Origin: a virus
Lineage: Duplodnaviria > Caudoviricetes
Strand: one strand, 5' to 3'
DNA: 64,000 nt
IMG/VR virus record: IMGVR_UViG_3300034062_007196
Coordinates: 7,447-71,446 of that record
Shown: in pieces, positions 24,130-41,800 of the stretch
Numbering within the stretch: the first letter of the stretch is position 1
Layout: the number at the start of each line of letters is the position of its first letter
Made by a program: the position numbers and the translations under genes
The notes under the pieces: model-generated
The model's database searches: none
What the model saw: only the letters and a program-made list of their open reading frames with translations
What the model was told of the DNA's origin: nothing

Positions 24130-24713
24130 TGAATACTAACGAATTGTATGAAAAAATTTTAAATCCTAAAATTAGGTGTCAAACAAGAGAGCAAATTTGG
24201 CATTTATACTTAAAAGAACATTATTCAAATTCTGCATTTTTAGAATTTGGAGTTTGGCAAGGTAGATCAATTAATTACATGGCTCTTGTTAGACCAGATT
24301 GCTTCTTTCACGGTTTCGATTCATTTGAAGGATTACCTGAAGATTGGAAAGAGAGTCACTCAAAAGGTATTTTCGCTACAGATTTTAGTAAGTTAAAATT
24401 TAAATCAAATGTCTTTATTTATAAAGGGTGGTTTGAAGAAACAATTTCAAAAGTAAAAAATATTAAAGAACCAATAAAAGGTATTCATATAGATTGTGAT
24501 ATTGGTAGTTCAACAAATACTATATTAAATAATTTATCTCAATTAATTATTGAACAAAAGCCTATGCTTTTATTTGATGAGATGTTTAATTATAGAGGGT
24601 ATGAAGAGCATGAATTTAAATCTTTCTTGAACTGGATTAATGAAAATAATTTAGATTTTAATATAGAAGCTTCGAACCTAAACCATGAACAGGTTTTAAT
24701 TAAATTACTTTAA
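24126..24713 (+). CDS. TylF/MycF-like sugar O-methyltransferase
   Basis: LEFGVWQGRS, GFDSFEGLP, KGWFEET, IHIDCD, LFDE. Confidence 0.8.
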   Translation: MMNTNELYEKILNPKIRCQTREQIWHLYLKEHYSNSAFLEFGVWQGRSINYMALVRPDCFFHGFDSFEGLPEDWKESHSKGIFATDFSKLKFKSNVFIYKGWFEETISKVKNIKEPIKGIHIDCDIGSSTNTILNNLSQLIIEQKPMLLFDEMFNYRGYEEHEFKSFLNWINENNLDFNIEASNLNHEQVLIKLL

Positions 24714-25672
24714 ATTTTTTGATAAAATTTTAACCATTCTTCATTATTAATGACATCTTCAAAAGAGTCTTTATGATGAAGAATATTATATTTTAATACT
24801 TTGTTAATATATTGTAGGCATTTCTGTTGAGAAGGTTTATAATAATTTAATTTAGACAGATTATTAAAATTTGTTGCGCATTCTAATGTAACTTCATGAT
24901 CAGAAAATGTACCTACTCCCAAAGTCGCTACTGGAATACCTAAACAGATAGCTTCTTGAACTAAAGTAGAATTAACAGATATGAGATAATTATATTCTTG
25001 AAGTTGGCTATAAGCACTTTTAGATAAATCAATATTCCATTGAGGGTTCCAAAAAGATTTTTTATATTTTTCAATATTTTCATTCCAATGATCTAAAAAT
25101 CTTGGATGTGGTCTTATAGTAACTTCATAAGAATCAGGCAAATATGTTTTAATAAAACATAAAGTGGCTTCAACTTTATCTGTAAATTTTTCTCCAAAAG
25201 GGAATTGAAAATTAATATTAGAATCTAAATGATGTTGAAGAGCAACTAATACTTTATTATTTTGAGTTTCATGAGAAAACCATTTATATTTGAATTTATT
25301 GAAAATAGTTTTATTTATTGTTTCAATACGACAATTTTGAATATCCTCTATTTGATCAAATCTTTTTCTCAAGTTAGAGTCAGAAAAAAAACCTTTATTG
25401 TCTAAATAAATTCCAGAATTTTGAATTAATAAAGAATTGTCAATAAATAAAACATTTTTATTTTGAGCCTCTATCCAAGAATGCTTCGTCCTACAATTCC
25501 ATGTAATTATATTAGGATATTCTTGAAATAATTTTAAATAATCTTTACATCCACCAGTAACGGAAACTTTACGAACTCCTATTTTTTTTTCAATTAAGAA
25601 TTTTTCCCATGCGTTAAAAATAGGACTATTTAAAACGTAATCTGTTAATAAACATAAAACTTTTTCTTCCAT
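24710..25672 (-). CDS. Capsule biosynthesis KpsS/KpsC-like GT-B protein
   Basis: LVALQHHLDSNI, IRPHP, VNSTLVQEAICLGIPVATLG. Confidence 0.7.
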   Translation of the reverse strand: MEEKVLCLLTDYVLNSPIFNAWEKFLIEKKIGVRKVSVTGGCKDYLKLFQEYPNIITWNCRTKHSWIEAQNKNVLFIDNSLLIQNSGIYLDNKGFFSDSNLRKRFDQIEDIQNCRIETINKTIFNKFKYKWFSHETQNNKVLVALQHHLDSNINFQFPFGEKFTDKVEATLCFIKTYLPDSYEVTIRPHPRFLDHWNENIEKYKKSFWNPQWNIDLSKSAYSQLQEYNYLISVNSTLVQEAICLGIPVATLGVGTFSDHEVTLECATNFNNLSKLNYYKPSQQKCLQYINKVLKYNILHHKDSFEDVINNEEWLKFYQKI

Positions 25673-31412: not shown

Positions 31413-32790
31413 TTGTATTATCTCTTGTTAAGAGAAGAAAACCATCCGATGAGAGAGCTACGCTAGCATCTAAATCAGGTTCAATTGGACTAACTGTATC
31501 TTTAAAATAAAGATAATTATTTAATCCAATATCTTCACCATCACTACTCCGTAAACGAAGGAGGTCGCTTGTAAAGAGTTGACCTCCTTCTTTTTCTGAA
31601 CGCTGACCCCATTGCATACTTAAACCATCCTTCTCATTGCAAGCAAAAGAGAAATTTAATTCCGTGCTAAAGATTCCTTCGTAATTGATTGAGTAGCTTT
31701 GAGAGTTTAATTTAGCGTTATTGATTCTTAAAGTTTTATTATTAGTTAAGAATCCAGAATAGTTTTGATTAGCTAACCCAGAAAGGGTTTGAATGCTTTT
31801 ACCGCTGTAAGTTAATTCTTGCGGATCAATAAATTGAAGAGTCAAGTCGTAAGACTCCTCGTTTTTCATGACTCCAGTGATAGTGGCTTCTCCAGTGTGA
31901 ATATCGAGAGAAACAGCAGAAATGCTTAAGTCTCCTAAAATTGGAAATTTAATTTTTCTGTCGTAAACAAAATCACTACCAAATCCATAAGCATTTTGCC
32001 TATCAACTGACGTTGAAAATTTAATTGACGAAATAGCAGCTTCGCCCCATGGAGCTAAAACAACAGAAGGAGATTGCAAGTTTTCTGCCCCTATTTTAAA
32101 TACTGTTGAATCATAAATTGGTAAAATAGGCAAGCCAGTGATTGAAGTGTTCAACTGGTTAAGATTGGCAATAAAAGCTGCATTATTAATTTCCAACTGA
32201 GCGATGTTGTTTTTATCGCCAACTCCCAAGTTGATTGCTGGAAGGTCCAAAAGATTTGAGCTTATTGTTGACGCTTCCATGTTTACAGCTTCCATCTGCA
32301 TTGAGATAGAAGGGAGAGTATTGACTTCCATTGACAAACTGTAATTCTGTAGAACACAATTACCAAAACTTAAAACCTGCAAACCATTTAAATTATTGCG
32401 ATCCTTAATTGACTGAATTAAATCGGGGCCAAATAAATCACTAATAATAAAAAACAAATTAATTGAATGATTGTTGCTACCTCCAAAGCATGAGGCATAG
32501 TCGCCAAATGGCTTAAAAAATATACCAAGCAAGTTTTCATTCTGAAAAGTTTTTGACGAAATGAAGTCAAAAGAAACTGCAACAGTAGGAGAGAATGATA
32601 AATTATTAACGGCAAAATCAGCAGAGCCAACTTGTTTTGCTTGTGATCTATTGCCCTGTATTTCAAACGCCAAATTATTGACAAATGCAATTGGGAATAA
32701 ACCTCTTTTGCGAGGTAAAAAGTCTTGAGGCTGCTGAAAAGCTGGGCTTAAATCAGAGGCTAGGATAATGGAATTGCTTTTGATAATCAT
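31405..32790 (-). CDS. Tail-tube-fold paralogue (tail tip / baseplate tube)
   Basis: SPTVAVSFDF, DRQNAYGFGSDFVYDRKIKFP and AKLNSQSYS align with the 47137-48276 protein. Confidence 0.65.
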   Translation of the reverse strand: MIIKSNSIILASDLSPAFQQPQDFLPRKRGLFPIAFVNNLAFEIQGNRSQAKQVGSADFAVNNLSFSPTVAVSFDFISSKTFQNENLLGIFFKPFGDYASCFGGSNNHSINLFFIISDLFGPDLIQSIKDRNNLNGLQVLSFGNCVLQNYSLSMEVNTLPSISMQMEAVNMEASTISSNLLDLPAINLGVGDKNNIAQLEINNAAFIANLNQLNTSITGLPILPIYDSTVFKIGAENLQSPSVVLAPWGEAAISSIKFSTSVDRQNAYGFGSDFVYDRKIKFPILGDLSISAVSLDIHTGEATITGVMKNEESYDLTLQFIDPQELTYSGKSIQTLSGLANQNYSGFLTNNKTLRINNAKLNSQSYSINYEGIFSTELNFSFACNEKDGLSMQWGQRSEKEGGQLFTSDLLRLRSSDGEDIGLNNYLYFKDTVSPIEPDLDASVALSSDGFLLLTRDNTTS

Positions 32791-35045
32791 GGCACAAATA
32801 CTCCAAAACGCGCATTATATGGTTTATGAAAACTAGAGTTCAAATCAAAAGCTGAATTTTTTGTGTAAATTAAAACTTCAGCAATATTGCCTTGCCAATA
32901 TTTAGAGGAAGACACTTGAGAACCTACTGAAACTTTGATTGATGGAAGATTGCTATTGCTGATCAACCCTGTATTGAAAACTTCTCCATTAATGTATCCA
33001 GTAATGTGAGTAGCATTTCTGACGAAGCCCACATTATAATATTCTTCTAATGAAACGTTAGAAGCAATAGTGAAAATCTCAGAATTATTTCTGAATTGAA
33101 ACTGTCCACCGCTTAGGAATAAGCCATAATTTATAGAGTCGGAGAAGTTTAATAAACACATCTCATTGCTTGACGAAGTTTTCGCTACTACAAAAGCTGA
33201 TAAATAATCTCCAGTATTATTAATACCAGAACCAGTGATTAATGTTTCATTAAAGCGAAAAGCTGAACGAGTAAAAATTTCATTTTTAATTGGCGTTAAC
33301 CAAGTGGAAGGAAATGGCAAATAAGCTTGATTAACGGTATAATTATTAAAACTAGAGTTCCAATTCAAGAAATATTCGCTACCAGTTTCTCGCGTCTTAA
33401 TATTATTTAACCAAATGCATGAGGTTCCAGCATTTACAAAACCTGTAGGTGATATTGGCAAGGTTAAGTCTTTGTAAAGTTGAGTCCAATTACGATAATC
33501 TAAGTTGCAAATACATGAATAATCAAAACCAGATTTGGGCGTGGCATTAGTTAAAATAAAACTACTATCGCCAATTAGAGATATTGATCCAGATTCTCCA
33601 GAACCTTTTGACAAACTATCTAGCGTGGTTGACAAGACAGAATCAGATATTCCATTATAGTTTAAATTAATGCCAGTTAAATTATTACAACCACTAATAT
33701 TAACAGATGTTAAAGAATTATAAGATAGGTCTAAATTTTTCAACCCAGTTGAGCCTGCGCAATTAAATGAGGACAAGTTGTTTTGAGATAAATACAAGTT
33801 GTTAATTTTTTTAGCATCCTTGAATACCACTTGATTAATAAAATTCTTATTTAAGTTTAAATCAACAACATCAGCACTTGAGTAAAAAGTTACTTTATTT
33901 AACTGCTGCTCATTGCATGTTAGAGACTCGAAGCCTCTATAAGCTTTAATATTTTTATTAATATTAGCGGGCCAATTTACAGAATAAGTTCCACCAGATA
34001 CAAGTTCATTTAATCCAGAAGCATTAAAAATAGAAACTAAATCTTTAGGTGAAGAGGCGGCTGCAAAAGAAGCGGCTTCAACGCCTTGCCCGAAAAGTAT
34101 AGCTGGAACATCATTTGGATTTTTAATTCCAAGAGGGTCTTCAATCAAAGTGACTTCTAAATTATTAGAGTTTTGGTAATTCCAAGAGTGCGTCCAAGAG
34201 TCTGCAAAATAAATTTTTGGACGGTTATAAATTTTGGGACAATCGAATTGAAACCTTTTGTATCCCAAATTATTTTCAAGAAAATGCAAAATAGATTTTA
34301 GCTCAAAATCAGTTATGTTCTTATATGAGAGGCGAACATTTTGGAAATAATGAATATTGTCTTGCTCTTTGATTCTGATTGCGAAAGAGTTTTTGAACTG
34401 CAAATTATTAATTGTGGGAGCACTATCTACCGACAATCCAATATCGTTTGAGTAAAATAAATTTTGAGTCCAATATCCAGTATTAGTTGGAGCAGTATCT
34501 AAAAACCCAGTATGATCTTGAACAGCATAATAGAAGTTGCTTAACTTATTGTCTCCTTGAATTTCAAAATAAACTGGTTGGTATTTTTGATAAAACTGCC
34601 CAGTTGTCCAGTTTTCAAAATCGTAATTAACAAAAGACTTTCCGCTCCAATTTAAAAAGCTGGAATTTCTCTCTACTGAAAAATCTAAAGCAATATTGTA
34701 AAGATTATTTTGAGCCATTTGAACTGAAAATGAATCCGCATAACCAGTTAAGTTTCGGTAAATATTGGATTCGTCAGAAATGGCAAAAGCTCCAGTTCCG
34801 CTTTGACTTTCGAAAAAGTTCATTATTTTTTCAGCATCAGGTTCGTTGACTGAAAAATTGAAAGAACACTTGGCAATAATATTGTTTGCTGTTGAAGGCA
34901 ACAAAGAGTAAGTATTGTTAGAATAATTTAGTTTGTTATTTTTACAAGTAAAAGCAATAGATGAACCATAGTTAGGACTAAAGTTGAACGAAGGTAATAA
35001 AGCGACCCCCTCTATGTTTCTATCTCTGTTGTAAAATAAGCTCAT
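32787..35045 (-). CDS. Tail tip protein: tandem gpM/Dit-like domains, LRR block and LamG-like C-terminus
   Basis: ILHFLENNLGYKRFQF...DSWTHSW...LEVTLIE; LxxLxLxxNxL repeats; YYNVGF...GYING...IAEVLIY. Confidence 0.6.
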   Translation of the reverse strand: MSLFYNRDRNIEGVALLPSFNFSPNYGSSIAFTCKNNKLNYSNNTYSLLPSTANNIIAKCSFNFSVNEPDAEKIMNFFESQSGTGAFAISDESNIYRNLTGYADSFSVQMAQNNLYNIALDFSVERNSSFLNWSGKSFVNYDFENWTTGQFYQKYQPVYFEIQGDNKLSNFYYAVQDHTGFLDTAPTNTGYWTQNLFYSNDIGLSVDSAPTINNLQFKNSFAIRIKEQDNIHYFQNVRLSYKNITDFELKSILHFLENNLGYKRFQFDCPKIYNRPKIYFADSWTHSWNYQNSNNLEVTLIEDPLGIKNPNDVPAILFGQGVEAASFAAASSPKDLVSIFNASGLNELVSGGTYSVNWPANINKNIKAYRGFESLTCNEQQLNKVTFYSSADVVDLNLNKNFINQVVFKDAKKINNLYLSQNNLSSFNCAGSTGLKNLDLSYNSLTSVNISGCNNLTGINLNYNGISDSVLSTTLDSLSKGSGESGSISLIGDSSFILTNATPKSGFDYSCICNLDYRNWTQLYKDLTLPISPTGFVNAGTSCIWLNNIKTRETGSEYFLNWNSSFNNYTVNQAYLPFPSTWLTPIKNEIFTRSAFRFNETLITGSGINNTGDYLSAFVVAKTSSSNEMCLLNFSDSINYGLFLSGGQFQFRNNSEIFTIASNVSLEEYYNVGFVRNATHITGYINGEVFNTGLISNSNLPSIKVSVGSQVSSSKYWQGNIAEVLIYTKNSAFDLNSSFHKPYNARFGVFVP

Positions 35046-35845: not shown

Positions 35846-38800
35846 TATTTTCCTTTAGTTAGTGAACCTCCGAGGCGTTTCTCTTGAGCAATAACATCTA
35901 GTACTGCTTGTTTGATTTTGCGCTGAAGTTCTTTTTCGTTACCGTTGGTATTTTCTGTTTTTGCTTGAGCTTCATTTGAAGAAACATTAACTACAACATT
36001 ATCTCCAGCAGATTCGCGGGTTGCTTGAATTAATTCGTCTAGCTTAGAAATTAGAGATTCTGTAACTGCGCTTGAGTCGCCTTCTCCAGTGTTAGTTTCG
36101 CCAGCATTGAGACGATTAAGATTCTGAACTCCCAGTTTGCGAGTAGCGCGATTATTGAGAACAAACTCGCCACCAGAGAGCATTGCTGGAACGTCATCAC
36201 GCATTCCTGAACCGCCAGAAATTAAACCTCCAGAAGCTCTTTTTGTCCAGCCATTAGGAGGAGGAAGTAACGGATTATAAGGATTATAAGAACCATCGCT
36301 ACCATAATCTTGCAGATTCAATTTAGATAAATCAACATTTGAATCAGAATCAATTAGTGAATTTCCTCCAGTTTGAATAATTCCTTTACTATATGTATTT
36401 GAACCTGACATTAATAAGGCAGACCCAGCTTGTGAAACTCCTCTTCCTGATCCAATAATAGAAGCGTTTTGTAATGCAGGATTTGTTATAGCTCTAAGCG
36501 TTAATGCTTCGCCTGACAAAGAATTACCAAATGAAGTAAATAAGCCTTTACCAGCACCCTTTAAGCTCGAAAGTAATCCAGATGGTTGTCCAGATAATTG
36601 ATTTAACGCTGATTGATTCTCTGCTCCTATTTTAGCTCTAGCACCAGCAACAGAAACAACAGAACTAACTACCGCACTAACGATAGAAGTGACTAATTGT
36701 TTTTGACGCTCCTTTTCTCTCGCTTCCATTTCTTTAAGCTGCTCTTGATATTGTTCTTCTTGCTTTAATTGTTGAAGATAAACATCAAAAGCTTGCTGCT
36801 TGCTTTCTTGAACGCGCTCGAACATTGGATTATTCTGGCGACCAAATTGAGAAAGTCTGCCGCTTTCTGCCTCTAAAGAAACAGATGCTCCGCTCATTCC
36901 AAAACCGCCCATGGTATCATATTGACCGCTGCTAAAGCTTTGAGTAGCAAAACTTAAAAGCTCTCTTTTACCGCGAATGCCACCAGTTCCATATTCTCCA
37001 GGGGCGTAGAATCCACCAGAGCCACTTTGAACACCGCCACCACTCGCGAAGCCTTTTATACTGCCTCTATTTAAGGAGTCAAGGAATTTAGAACCATATT
37101 TCTGAACAGATGATTTTTTAATGACATATTCTCCGCCCATGAGCATTGCTGGAACGTCGTCTTTAACACCAGAACCGCCATTAACTTGACCACCAGAAGC
37201 GAAGAAAGATTGTGCGACATTGCCGACACCGCCCGTGACAAGGTTAGCGATATTTTCAATATTCTTTTGAGTAATAGCTTGGAAAAAGCTTGTTGCTGCA
37301 TCGCGCAGAGCATCTTTGAGGGATTTTGCACCACTGATTGCATCATTCAATCCTTGGGTAAGATTAGATGAGAAAAGTTGTGGAATTTCTTTACCCAACT
37401 CATTCTTAAAATCAAAAGTTCTTTTTTCTACTTCATCAAATCCTTGAGATAAACCATATCCAAAAGAAGAACGATACGCTCTTTGTTCATCAGGTGATCC
37501 CTTAGCTTGTTCTCTTTCATTTCTCGCTATCTCTCTTTGTTTAAAAACAAATTCTCCAACAGTTTGAGGATCACTTAATGAATCTCTTAATGCTCTAGTT
37601 TGAGCTTCTAATTTGCTAGAATAACTATTAACTGCATCGTAAGTTTCAAGCTCTATATCAAATCTCTTTTTTAATGTTTCTAGAGTTTGACTTGAAACAG
37701 CGCCTTCTTTTTGATATGATTCATACAAGTCTTTAGATACTTCTATCAATCTATCCCTCATATCTTGAGGAGCTTGAAACTGTTCAATATTACTTTGTAT
37801 ATCTGCAAAACCTTGACCGCTTTGAATAAATCCTGTAATTTGATCTATAAATCCTTCAGCAGTTTTTAAATTTCCTCCTGACTTCATTGGTAAAGTTGCA
37901 GAAGGAGAATAGACTCCTCTTAAATCTGTTAAATATTTTAAGGCATCTTGACGTTTCATCTCTTCTGGCAATTGAATCTTATCTACATTTGACATTAATG
38001 TATTGTCTAATTCATTACTACCATTTTGAAGAGCGCTAATAGCAGAATCAATTTTTGCTATGAAATCGGCTGCTAAAAGTTTTGTTAAAGCATTAAGAGC
38101 ATCAGTATTTCTATTTAATCCAGCAATATTTTCTTTTGTGAAAAATTCTCTTTTTATTGCTAACGTCTTTTCAGTAAGCGCTGCGTCTTTTTCTTTTGGA
38201 TTTTTAGCATTAAAAGCTTTTAACTCTTCTTCTCTACGAATTGAAATAGCATCTCTGCTAGTTTTAGCTTGGGCAGATAAAATATCAATATTGCCTTGTT
38301 TTTGAATATCAATTCTTTCGATTTCGCCACGAAGTTGAATTAGTTTTTTTTCTCCTTCTACCATTGAATTGACAAAACTAGCTAACTTATTCTTATAAGT
38401 ATCATAGGCGCGAGCTTCTAATAATTTTTCTGAATTATTAAAAGCTAAAATAGCTTGTTCATTTTCAACTTGTTTTTGTAAGTTTTTAAAACTATTAGTT
38501 GTTTCACTAATTTTTTTATCTAAAGCTTGAAGCTTAGATTGATCAGCTATTTGACCAGACTTTTCAAGAGCTTCGTTAAAAGATTGTAAATTTTTAACAA
38601 ATTCTTCTTCAGTTGTAGATTTACCCAATCCTCCAATGCTATCTTTAAGATTTTGTGCTGTTTCGGGGTTTAATCCCAATTCAGGTATAAATTCTAATAA
38701 ACTAGATTGAGCATCGCTAGCGAATTTAGATATTCTATTTTCTATATCTTTTTTTAGTTGAGTAGATGAAGAATTAATTTCAAAAATAATTTTTGAACTA

Positions 38801-41800
38801 TCAGATAAGGAAGCGAAAGCTTTACTAGAGGTAATTGAGCTTATTAATTGAGATTCACGTTCTAATGTCTTTGATGAATTTTCTACAACTAAAGCTCCAT
38901 CTGAAATAATTTTTTCAATTATTTTTTTAAATTGCTCAACTGGTTTATTAAATTCAGCATTAGCAGTTATAATTTCAATTTTTTTAGCAGTTTCATTAGA
39001 AACTTTTCTTAAACTCTCAACATAATCAGAATTAATAACTTTTTGCAAATCAAGAATACCATTTTCTGTAGAAGCTTGTAATAATTCGCTTATTTTAGCT
39101 TTTGTATCATTTGCAATAGCAACTTCTGGCGCTTTTGGAAGAGAAGCTCTTAAGCTACTAAAAATTAAAGAACTCAATTCTTGTTGAACTTTTGCAAAAT
39201 CTTGATCTGTTTGGCCTCCCTTAAGATTTGTAATTTGAGTTTGTCCGCCAGAATTATAAGCAACAGTTTCGCGCCCCAAATTCATCGGACTTAAGCTGGA
39301 AAACAATTTAGTTATTGTTCCTCCAATTCCAATATCTCCTAAGCTAGTATTTATGCTTTTTAATACAGCTTTATCAATATCACTTAAAGAAGATGAGGCT
39401 TTTGATGCAGAAGATGATAATAATTCTAAAGAAGAATCAAGCTTATCTCCTCTTGTATAAAATAAAGCAGCAATATCATTAAATCCTTTAAGAGCAACTG
39501 TAGCAGCTAACGCAACTCCAGTAAAAGATTTGAATGTTGAAGATATTGTTTCCAATGGATTGCCAACAAAATTACGAAGACTGCCAGCTAATTTACTAGT
39601 ACCTAAACTAGAACTTAATCGTGTAGCAAAAGAAGTATTAGATGGCAACCGACCTCCGCGAGATACTATTGAGGCTCTAGACCCACCACCTGCAACAAAT
39701 TCTTTTTGCCATTTTTGTACTTTATCTTTAGCGTCTTTTATAACTTGACTAAATTTTGATATATTATTTGTGGCTATTGTAATATTTTTTGTTTCAGTTT
39801 TTGCGCTTAATTGTTGTACAGCTTGAAACGCAAATAAAGCAGTAGTTAAAGTCTGCAAAGCATCATTCACTTTTTGTGCTGCGCTTCCAGCCTGAATAAA
39901 ACCACCTTCAAAAAAGGACAGAGCGCCTTGTAAAACAAAGAACTTACCAGCTAAATCGCCAAAACCTTTACTGGCTTTAACTTGATCTGTATCACTAACT
40001 ACTGGTGCAAAATTAGGCACAAATCCATTAGCAGCACCATAGGTCTTTGGATTCACGCCTTCTCTGCGTGCGCGAGAGACGCCTTGAAAACCACCAGCAG
40101 GCTCATCCCTGCGATTAGCCACCATTAACCCCATTGGGTTAGCAGCAGACTTGAGCGCAGGACTTTGATCAACATAAATTTGTGAAGCTGAAATTCCTGC
40201 GCTTCTCTCGCGAGAGATGGCAGCTTGAAGAGCATCGCTAGCAAAATTAGGAATATAACCAGAAGAACTTCTTCCAGTTGCTTTGTTCATTAATGCATTA
40301 ATTTGTGTTCTATCTCTTATTGGATCTAGTCCTAAATCTTGAGCAATTGATTTGTACATCTCTTTTGCTTCAATTGACTTCTTGCTTGATAAATTATTAT
40401 AGCTAAGCCATCTACCTTTAAGGTCTGTACTTATTTCAGTTTTTGGTTTGTCAATATATTTTCCAGATTCCAATCTATAAATCTTAGATGCAAAACTTTG
40501 TCTTGTGGCATCATTATCAGCATATTTAGCTTCAACAAAATTAATATTTTCATCAATTCCGAAAAATTTATTAAATTGTGATTTAGCTACACCTTTAAAA
40601 TCAAAAGGAGCATTATCATCGCGGTTTAATTGAGCTTCTATTAAATCAGGGTCTTTAAGAGCAGAAATAATCGCTGATTCAAAAATAGAACCGATTAGAC
40701 TTGGTACAGAACCTTTATTAGCTAATTTAACTTGTGCTACTGGAGATATAGGTTGACCTATAACTGCATTAGCATATTTTTCTATATCTTCTAAAGCTAA
40801 ATTTTTATATTTTTCTTCTAAAAATTTTGTACTAAATTGAGATTTAAATCTATCTATTTGCCCTATACCTTGTAAGTTTTCAGTTTCACCAATACCATAA
40901 ACATTTGCTTTATAATAAACTTTATCTTCATTTCTTGGTTTATAAGAAACTAACTGATTTAGTCTTGGAGAATTAAGATCATTAACAAGCAATGCATATT
41001 TTTGATGAACATCAAGAGGATTATCTTTTGTACCTCCAGAAAAATTTGGGATAAACCCACCAGATGCCGTAATCTTTTTTGCCCCTGCTGGCAAGCCCAT
41101 GGTTTTCACCATATCTTGATTAAAGATAGCGGAACCGCCACCAGCATAATTAGGAACAATATATTCGCTAGTGTTAGCAATCATTGTGCCGCGCTTACCG
41201 CCGCCAAATGCGAAATTAGGAATAGATACAACTTTAGAGCTTGGTGATGCGCCACCTACTCCACGGCGAACGTCTGAGGCTTCTTGCGCAGGTAAATAAC
41301 CACCAGCAGAAAGACGAGTTAATCCTTGAGAACCAGAGCGATAACCTTGAGCAATAACTGGCGCTGCAATACCACCAGCAAGAGTTCTAATATTTTGCAA
41401 TACTTGTTCTTCTTGTTTTAAGATATTTAAGAAAGCAGATGCTTGCGCATTTTGACCTCCTTGAGTATTTAAAATTTGACTTAAAACAGTTTTATTGCGT
41501 ATAAGAGTCTGAACAATAGATTCTTGAACCTGCTGCTGCTCTTTGGCGGATTGACCAATATTAAAGAAAGTTTTTAAGCTTTGAACGCCGAATTTGGCCA
41601 AATCAAAACTTAGTTTTGCAATAATGGCTAAAAATAATCCAATACCAGGGCCGCTCAAAACAGAACCAATACCTTTTACAATTCCTTTTGCAAAGCGTGA
41701 ACCAAGATCGTCGCCTTGGAGAAGGTTAGATGCTCCCTCCAAGAAGGAATTAATGCCATCTAAGATTCCTTTTAAATTATCTCCCAAGCCAATCTCACCC

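Follow-up and report, generated by a model that had tools for sequence, protein, structure and literature searches.

We analysed the tail tape measure protein (TMP) of an uncultured phage, encoded in a 64,000-nt stretch of DNA (hereafter the window), and found it to be a member of a large TMP family for which metagenomes are the only source. Proteins of this family carry an island of modules bounded by copies of one short peptide (hereafter the fence peptide). Within the island they conserve a core with a nuclease-like active-site signature, and near-identical members exchange slot content at the peptide. The window copy of the core lies in a segment of foreign base composition. On balance, we lean slightly towards the view that the island holds an obligatory, divergent and metal-dependent nuclease-like enzyme that is built into the virion, and that its modules are exchanged via the fence peptide. 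The fold, the activity and the delivery of this enzyme, like any cut at the peptide, are what we infer from the evidence below.

TMPs are known for measuring tail length and for carrying domains that degrade the cell wall. The assignment of the window protein (Table 1) is straightforward: residues 127–318 match PF10145 (E 4e-28, 99 bits compared to a Pfam gathering score of 33.2) and PHROG tape measure families match the first ~500 residues, with a best E of 5e-47. The next gene downstream (32787–35045, minus strand) matches Phage_min_tail with E 1e-6 and 29.6 bits, under the Pfam cut-off of 39, as well as the phrog_14 minor tail protein (E 1.7e-5). The order of a TMP gene followed by this weak, sub-threshold minor-tail match fits a tail block. 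The product of the downstream gene is composite, with Phage_min_tail at aa 20–123, LRR_8 at aa 432–466 and a Laminin_G_3/ConA-like domain at aa 616–729.

Table 1 Positions of the tape measure gene, its fence peptides, its island modules and the core residues (window coordinates, all on the minus strand)
Feature	TMP residues	Window	Strand	Basis or content
TMP gene (P0001)	2366 aa	35845–42945	-	Single ORF; PF10145; PHROG TMP families
Island leader	SIPNFA 574–579, IVPNYA 596–601, GGFIPNF 629–635	41041–41226	-	Three fence peptides with two mini-modules between them; motif positions
SIPNFA	574–579	41209–41226	-	Motif position
YIVPNYA (fifth copy, absent from the earlier list)	PNY 598–600	~41152	-	Motif position
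SGGFIPNF	628–635	41041–41064	-	Motif position
Slot module, 258 aa	636–893	40267–41040	-	Between third and fourth fence peptide; AlphaFold2 model; GC3
Conserved core	731–831	40453–40755	-	G752, F755, E756, D782, E805, K807, S817, K821; alignments, 147 distinct cores
GSIFE	752–756	40678–40680 (E756)	-	
APFDF	779–783	40600–40602 (D782)	-	
FVEAK	803–807	40525–40539	-	E805 and K807
Universal terminal module	894–980	40006–40266	-	GYIPNFA, 69–70 aa, GFVPNFA; family copies; L001 island
SSGYIPNFA	894–902	40240–40266	-	Motif position
NGFVPNFA	973–980	40006–40029	-	Motif position
Second replaced segment	~983–1850	37396–40000	-	Low GC3; no L001 DNA similarity; sliding GC3

An earlier note on this DNA had described an insert of about 255 aa between SGGFIPNF and SSGYIPNFA that contains the strings GSIFE, APFDF and FVEAK. 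The insert is there, at 258 aa, and every coordinate given for these strings and for the fence peptides was borne out. The motif [IV]PN[FY] occurs five times between residues 571 and 980, compared to 0.023 occurrences expected from 20,000 shuffles of the protein, and the family consensus of the fence peptide is [A/S]-G-G-[F/Y]-[I/V]-P-N-F-A. The description of the 258-aa segment as a discrete module fenced by a repeated peptide is supported. The window TMP carries a minimal island, made of two mini-modules, the single 258-aa module and a universal terminal module of 70 aa.

The insert had also been described as AT-rich, and this is real. Its GC content is 0.289 and its GC content at third codon positions (GC3) is 0.097, compared to 0.30–0.33 in the fence-bearing flanks and to a mean of 0.305 ± 0.056 over the 27 other genes of the window. 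Because this difference is found at third codon positions, the AT-richness is not solely an effect of amino-acid composition, and we could rule out that it merely reflects flanks rich in Gly, Ala and Pro. The GC3 of the insert points to a donor of lower GC. Along the rest of the TMP, sliding GC3 falls to 0.07–0.17 from about residue 1050 to 1850 and is nearer 0.20 at residues 983–1050. Elsewhere in the window, the ORF at 24710–25672 (minus strand), labelled KpsS/C-like in the earlier note, has a GC of 0.247 and a GC3 of 0.128, far under the other genes, and may be a recent acquisition.

A single search with TMP residues 560–990 as query returned 1353 TMP-length proteins at E <= 0.001; where the source gives a name, the homologues are TP901-type tape measure proteins. 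At least two fence peptides are present in all 121 homologues listed, with mostly 4–11 copies that enclose 1–8 modules of about 70–760 aa. Altogether, 401 modules of the homologues cluster into 52 families. The terminal module is 68–71 aa long and is found in 129 copies in 121 of 127 proteins. Both this module and the leader (aa 561–635) are conserved above the rest of the TMP: the leader keeps 92–99% identity in relatives that share just 77–80% over the N-terminal 560 aa. None of the 50,697 deposited phage records contains the island or its nuclease-like core; matches in them are confined to TMP residues 8–548, and the region is found in no cultured phage.

Hardly any slot module of the family is recognised by Pfam. 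GNAT acetyltransferase domains are found in PNF-fenced slots of two relatives (P0080, aa 1359–1414; P0063, aa 1266–1320). At a third locus (L045:3592-4758), a GNAT domain follows the nuclease-like core and is separated from it by a degenerate peptide, GGFIPSFA. VanY, lysozyme or SLT domains are likewise found among the relatives. We considered whether peptidoglycan hydrolases occupy the same slots and rejected this for VanY, which in P0029 and P0083 lies downstream of the island, after the last PNF. Pfam identified no peptidase family in the window TMP, in eight relatives or in ten neighbouring genes.

How widely the core is shared was assessed with a profile built on an alignment of the ~100-aa core and tested on 127 TMP homologues and 54 IMG/VR loci. 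A search of IMG/VR by peptide patterns found no close relatives of the insert, and the terminal module was then used as the only query to retrieve the 54 loci. Because of this mode of retrieval, the 54-locus set is unbiased towards the insert. The core profile matches 126 of the 127 homologues and 51 of the 54 loci, and a broader core profile matches all 127 homologues and 52 loci. All but four of the homologue proteins contain exactly one copy. Judged from these sequences, the core is an obligatory and mostly single-copy part of the TMP family. With matches in 127/127 proteins and 52/54 loci, we reject the nuclease-like unit as an optional cassette, and the polymorphic-toxin-like slot with alternative cargoes that the earlier note had envisaged does not hold either.

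The two IMG/VR loci without a detectable core, L051 and L052, are also the most divergent in the set, with 54% identity in the terminal module; a weak alignment suggests that they retain a degenerate core copy lacking the Lys. In four relatives (P0045, aa 789–854; P0048, aa 643–715; P0051; P0059) an accessory module gives a second, weak match to the core profile (E 1e-4 to 1e-6), so that part of the accessory modules may descend from early duplications of the core.

The core appears confined to TMPs. An exhaustive phmmer search over 1.84 billion representatives detected the module in no more than nine proteins, all of them long or truncated (519–2745 aa), several of which are TMPs of our homologue set, and a profile search among proteins of 48–198 aa found no stand-alone core.

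Conservation within the core is concentrated at a few residues. Among 147 distinct cores, G752, D782 and K807 are invariant (147/147) and F755 is kept in 146. Position 756 is E in 136 cores, D in 10 and Q in 1, while position 805 is E in 97 and D in 50. The E ... D ... (D/E)xK feature that marks membership of the PD-(D/E)XK superfamily is thus conserved, with E or D at position 756 in 146 of the 147 distinct cores and at position 805 in all of them. A lone E/D/ExK string could arise by chance; its conservation over 147 aligned cores could not.

In PD-(D/E)XK enzymes the E lies on helix alpha1, the D at the start of strand beta2 and the (D/E)xK in beta3, followed by alpha2; a GxxFE helix motif belongs to the Mrr and Hjc families. 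The AlphaFold2 model of the 258-aa module (pLDDT 77.7, pTM 0.69) consists of an N-terminal three-strand beta meander, a helical hairpin, the nuclease-like core and a poorly predicted C-terminal tail. In module numbering, E121 falls in a helix (111–127), D147 lies just before a strand (148–149), and E170 and K172 are in a strand (168–172) that is followed by a helix (177–191). The canonical four-stranded sheet is missing from the models, which have neither beta1 nor beta4 and place a helix where beta1 is expected. A model of the core by itself has just two short strands and a pLDDT of 70.

Searches for a known family gave no match. The insert and 35 homologues found no nuclease family in Pfam, NCBIfam, PADLOC, PHROGs or in sequence and profile searches of the PDB; for the profile searches of 35 members against Pfam, NCBIfam, PADLOC and the PDB, nothing was returned at E <= 1. 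Foldseek, which the earlier note had named as a check on the module, yielded no match at E <= 0.001, either in the PDB (both models) or in BFVD (whole-module model). The structure search with the whole module returned only generic helical-hairpin look-alikes. Among the weak structural matches, 15 of 50 are PD-(D/E)XK nucleases. In a language-model atlas, all neighbours with a Pfam name belong to PD-(D/E)XK families (Mrr_cat, Hjc, PDDEXK_14, ThaI, PDDEXK_11, HinfI, Mrr_cat_2, XhoI and AHJR-like), at scores of 0.80–0.85, a range that the tool itself calls leads only.

Three weak but independent lines, namely the order of secondary structure, the language-model neighbours and the weak structural matches, thus agree with the conservation of the residues. 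We consider the PD-(D/E)XK fold assignment of the core quite probable though unproven, and its predicted activity as a phosphodiesterase somewhat less so. The nuclease identity proposed in the earlier note is accordingly a putative one: the E ... D ... (E/D)xK residues are conserved and their order on the model fits, but neither a sequence-profile nor a Foldseek match nor the canonical sheet backs it.

Next, we compared close relatives to locate the limits of exchange. In P0034, the protein with the closest backbone, identity to the window TMP is 98% for residues 1–560, 97% for the leader, 95% for the terminal module and 91% for the last 666 residues. The P0034 slot, nonetheless, has no BLAST similarity to the window slot: identity ends directly after GGF[I/V]PNF, restarts at GYIPNFA and ends again after GFVPNF.

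The same pattern is seen in DNA. The closest related viral contig (L001) is 95.2% identical to the window over 45354–41038, 94.6% over 40260–40001, a 260-nt island between two PNF sites, and 98% over 36222–34717, and is unalignable in the slot and over 40000–37396. The first block stops one codon past F635, and the second begins at G896 and extends two codons beyond PNFA. In place of the window module, the slots of L001 and P0034 hold a 132- or 181-aa module and a module of ~380 aa. The latter has a GAGKST Walker-A-like region, seen in the L001 alignment row, followed by the same nuclease-like core. The GAGKST string recurs in the L016 row, and some relatives give weak AAA_30 matches.

Over the family, identity of the backbone does not predict identity of the core (rho = -0.03, n = 142 homologues). 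For example, the five closest backbones (91–98% identical) carry cores of 20–23% identity, whereas a backbone of 90% identity carries a core of 72%; even cores on 98%-identical backbones share only ~20% identity. Since identity breaks at the peptide and the identities of backbone and core are decoupled, the slot is a recombination site. What is swapped there are alleles of a single obligatory core that have diverged deeply, accompanied in some cases by accessory modules.

The earlier note's idea of an exchangeable slot delimited by repeats therefore survives in modified form. Near-identical TMPs do swap content exactly at the peptide, as P0034 and L001 illustrate, but the same core is always retained. 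The homologue alignment likewise reveals swapping, of divergent alleles of one core instead of different domains that replace it. The opposite picture, in which homologues would keep the segment without the E/D/ExK residues and show no swapping, was not observed: the residues are conserved in 147 cores and exchange was found.

Comparison to L001 also shows replacement of a second TMP block (~aa 983–1850), the one that directly follows the last PNF. Mosaicism is therefore not limited to the PNF-fenced slot.

In this family, then, a TP901-type N-terminal domain is followed by an island of separately folding modules, each fenced by the peptide, and the 258-aa module is the obligatory core module. 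To account for these observations, we propose that this module is most likely a divergent, metal-dependent nuclease-like enzyme that forms part of the TMP in the virion. TMPs occupy the tail lumen and, in several studied siphophages, leave it before the DNA does; an enzyme carried by the TMP, such as the predicted one in the core module, would therefore arrive in the envelope or cytoplasm of the host as the genome enters. The fence peptide, together with the highly conserved leader and terminal modules, most likely provides anchors for homologous recombination, through which related phages swap very divergent core alleles and gain or lose accessory modules. Against the nuclease reading, it leaves unexplained how three copies of a folded 258-aa domain, as modelled, would be housed in the tail tube.

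A bolder version, which we hold only tentatively and regard as rather improbable, makes the TMP family a virion-borne effector polyprotein. Once ejected, the TMP would be cleaved into free modules at the PNF decapeptide, its processing or release site, either autocatalytically or through a protease. The obligatory nuclease-like enzyme would then target nucleic acid of the host or of a competitor as the genome enters, and the accessory slots would supply a quickly exchangeable stock of takeover or anti-defence enzymes.

The module could instead be a structural or assembly domain that holds the DNA end in the tail, binds a tail chaperone or terminator, or binds metal, with its charged residues serving binding or folding. 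The lack of a nuclease family or fold match, a model without the canonical sheet, and the universal and mostly single-copy occurrence, as expected of a structural part, would all suit such a role. However, just six positions are kept while the core has diverged to about 20% identity, and those kept are an E, a D and an (E/D)xK whose order and secondary-structure context are canonical, a pattern typical of active sites and not of interfaces. Together with named language-model neighbours that are all nucleases and the PD-(D/E)XK share of the weak structural matches, this leads us to regard a purely structural role as unlikely, though as the most serious rival to an enzyme.

Less likely again, in our judgement, is an active PD-(D/E)XK-like enzyme whose substrate is something other than host DNA, such as RNA, immune signalling nucleotides or the phage's own DNA end at ejection. 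The active-site evidence (conservation, model, weak structural and language-model neighbours) serves this reading equally well, the fusion of the core to the GAGKST Walker-A-like region in L001 and L016 suggests chemistry on nucleotides or nucleic-acid ends, and GNAT domains occur in neighbouring slots. Nonetheless, the data fit all candidate substrates alike, and most PD-(D/E)XK enzymes cut DNA. By far the least credible alternative is a selfish element in the TMP gene, intein-like or a homing endonuclease, that spreads alone and is spliced or tolerated. PD-(D/E)XK homing endonucleases do exist, and the insert has a foreign composition and moves between backbones. Yet the core is not sporadic, since essentially all family members have it, at the corresponding position. 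No empty site was seen, Pfam found no intein family, and it is the fence peptide that forms the junctions. The adjoining ~aa 983–1850 is exchanged too, which indicates ordinary mosaic recombination.

Compared to known systems, the family resembles TP901-type TMPs in its N-terminal PF10145 domain, its great length, its hydrophobic segments and its probable position ahead of minor tail genes. It differs from those with embedded peptidoglycan hydrolases in that VanY, where present (P0029, P0083), is C-terminal of the island and not in a slot, and in the peptide-fenced island and nuclease-like core that deposited phages lack. With the PD-(D/E)XK phosphodiesterases (Mrr_cat PF04471, Hjc PF01870, VRR-NUC, PDDEXK_14 PF24579) the core shares, in its model, the succession of E in a helix, D at a strand start, (E/D)xK in a strand and a further helix, and putatively the GxxFE helix motif of Mrr and Hjc. 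Unlike them, it has no profile or Foldseek match and no modelled four-stranded sheet; on its N-terminal side the module adds a beta meander and a helical hairpin, and it is found only inside TMPs. As in polymorphic toxin systems, a domain is replaced by recombination at a conserved junction between near-identical proteins; in contrast to C-terminal toxin exchange, the replaced unit is internal and, as far as the sequences tell, always an allele of the same core.

The polyvalent proteins of phages and conjugative elements offer another parallel. These are large and virion-associated, combine unrelated and partly enzymatic domains (nucleases, GNAT), are thought to be injected with the DNA, and have been proposed to be processed into separate units (Iyer et al. 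2017, PMC5512222); tape measure proteins do not occur in that paper. The likeness would lie in TMP relatives that hold up to eight modules from 52 families, GNAT included, while the window TMP has the core module only. The differences are that Pfam finds no MPTase peptidase domain in the window TMP or in eight relatives, that the TMP modules are fenced by one conserved decapeptide, and that one module is obligatory.

Full-text literature searches found no published TMPs with PD-(D/E)XK domains or with peptide-fenced modules. New in this work are the universality of a mostly single-copy core, the decoupling of backbone and core, the foreign GC3 of the insert, the nucleotide-level breakpoints for the window and the enrichment of PD-(D/E)XK nucleases among the weak structural matches. 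Together they define a metagenomic TMP family that joins a nuclease-like active-site signature to module exchange at a fixed peptide, with a core that is a domain family without detectable relatives outside TMPs. If our reading is correct, virion-delivered effectors would be found in the tail lumen too, and not just among the polyvalent proteins packaged in the head. The system is also testable, with putative catalytic residues, a defined peptide and natural near-isogenic phages that differ in slot content.

Finally, the C-terminal third of the TMP contains two copies of another motif, DDVPAML-x-GGE[Y/F]V (window 37159–37161 and 36196–36198, aa 1929 and 2250), which loosely resembles the leader sequence ...IANTSEYIVPNY. 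About 40 conserved residues flank both copies and match PHROGs 13338 and 35029, of unknown function.
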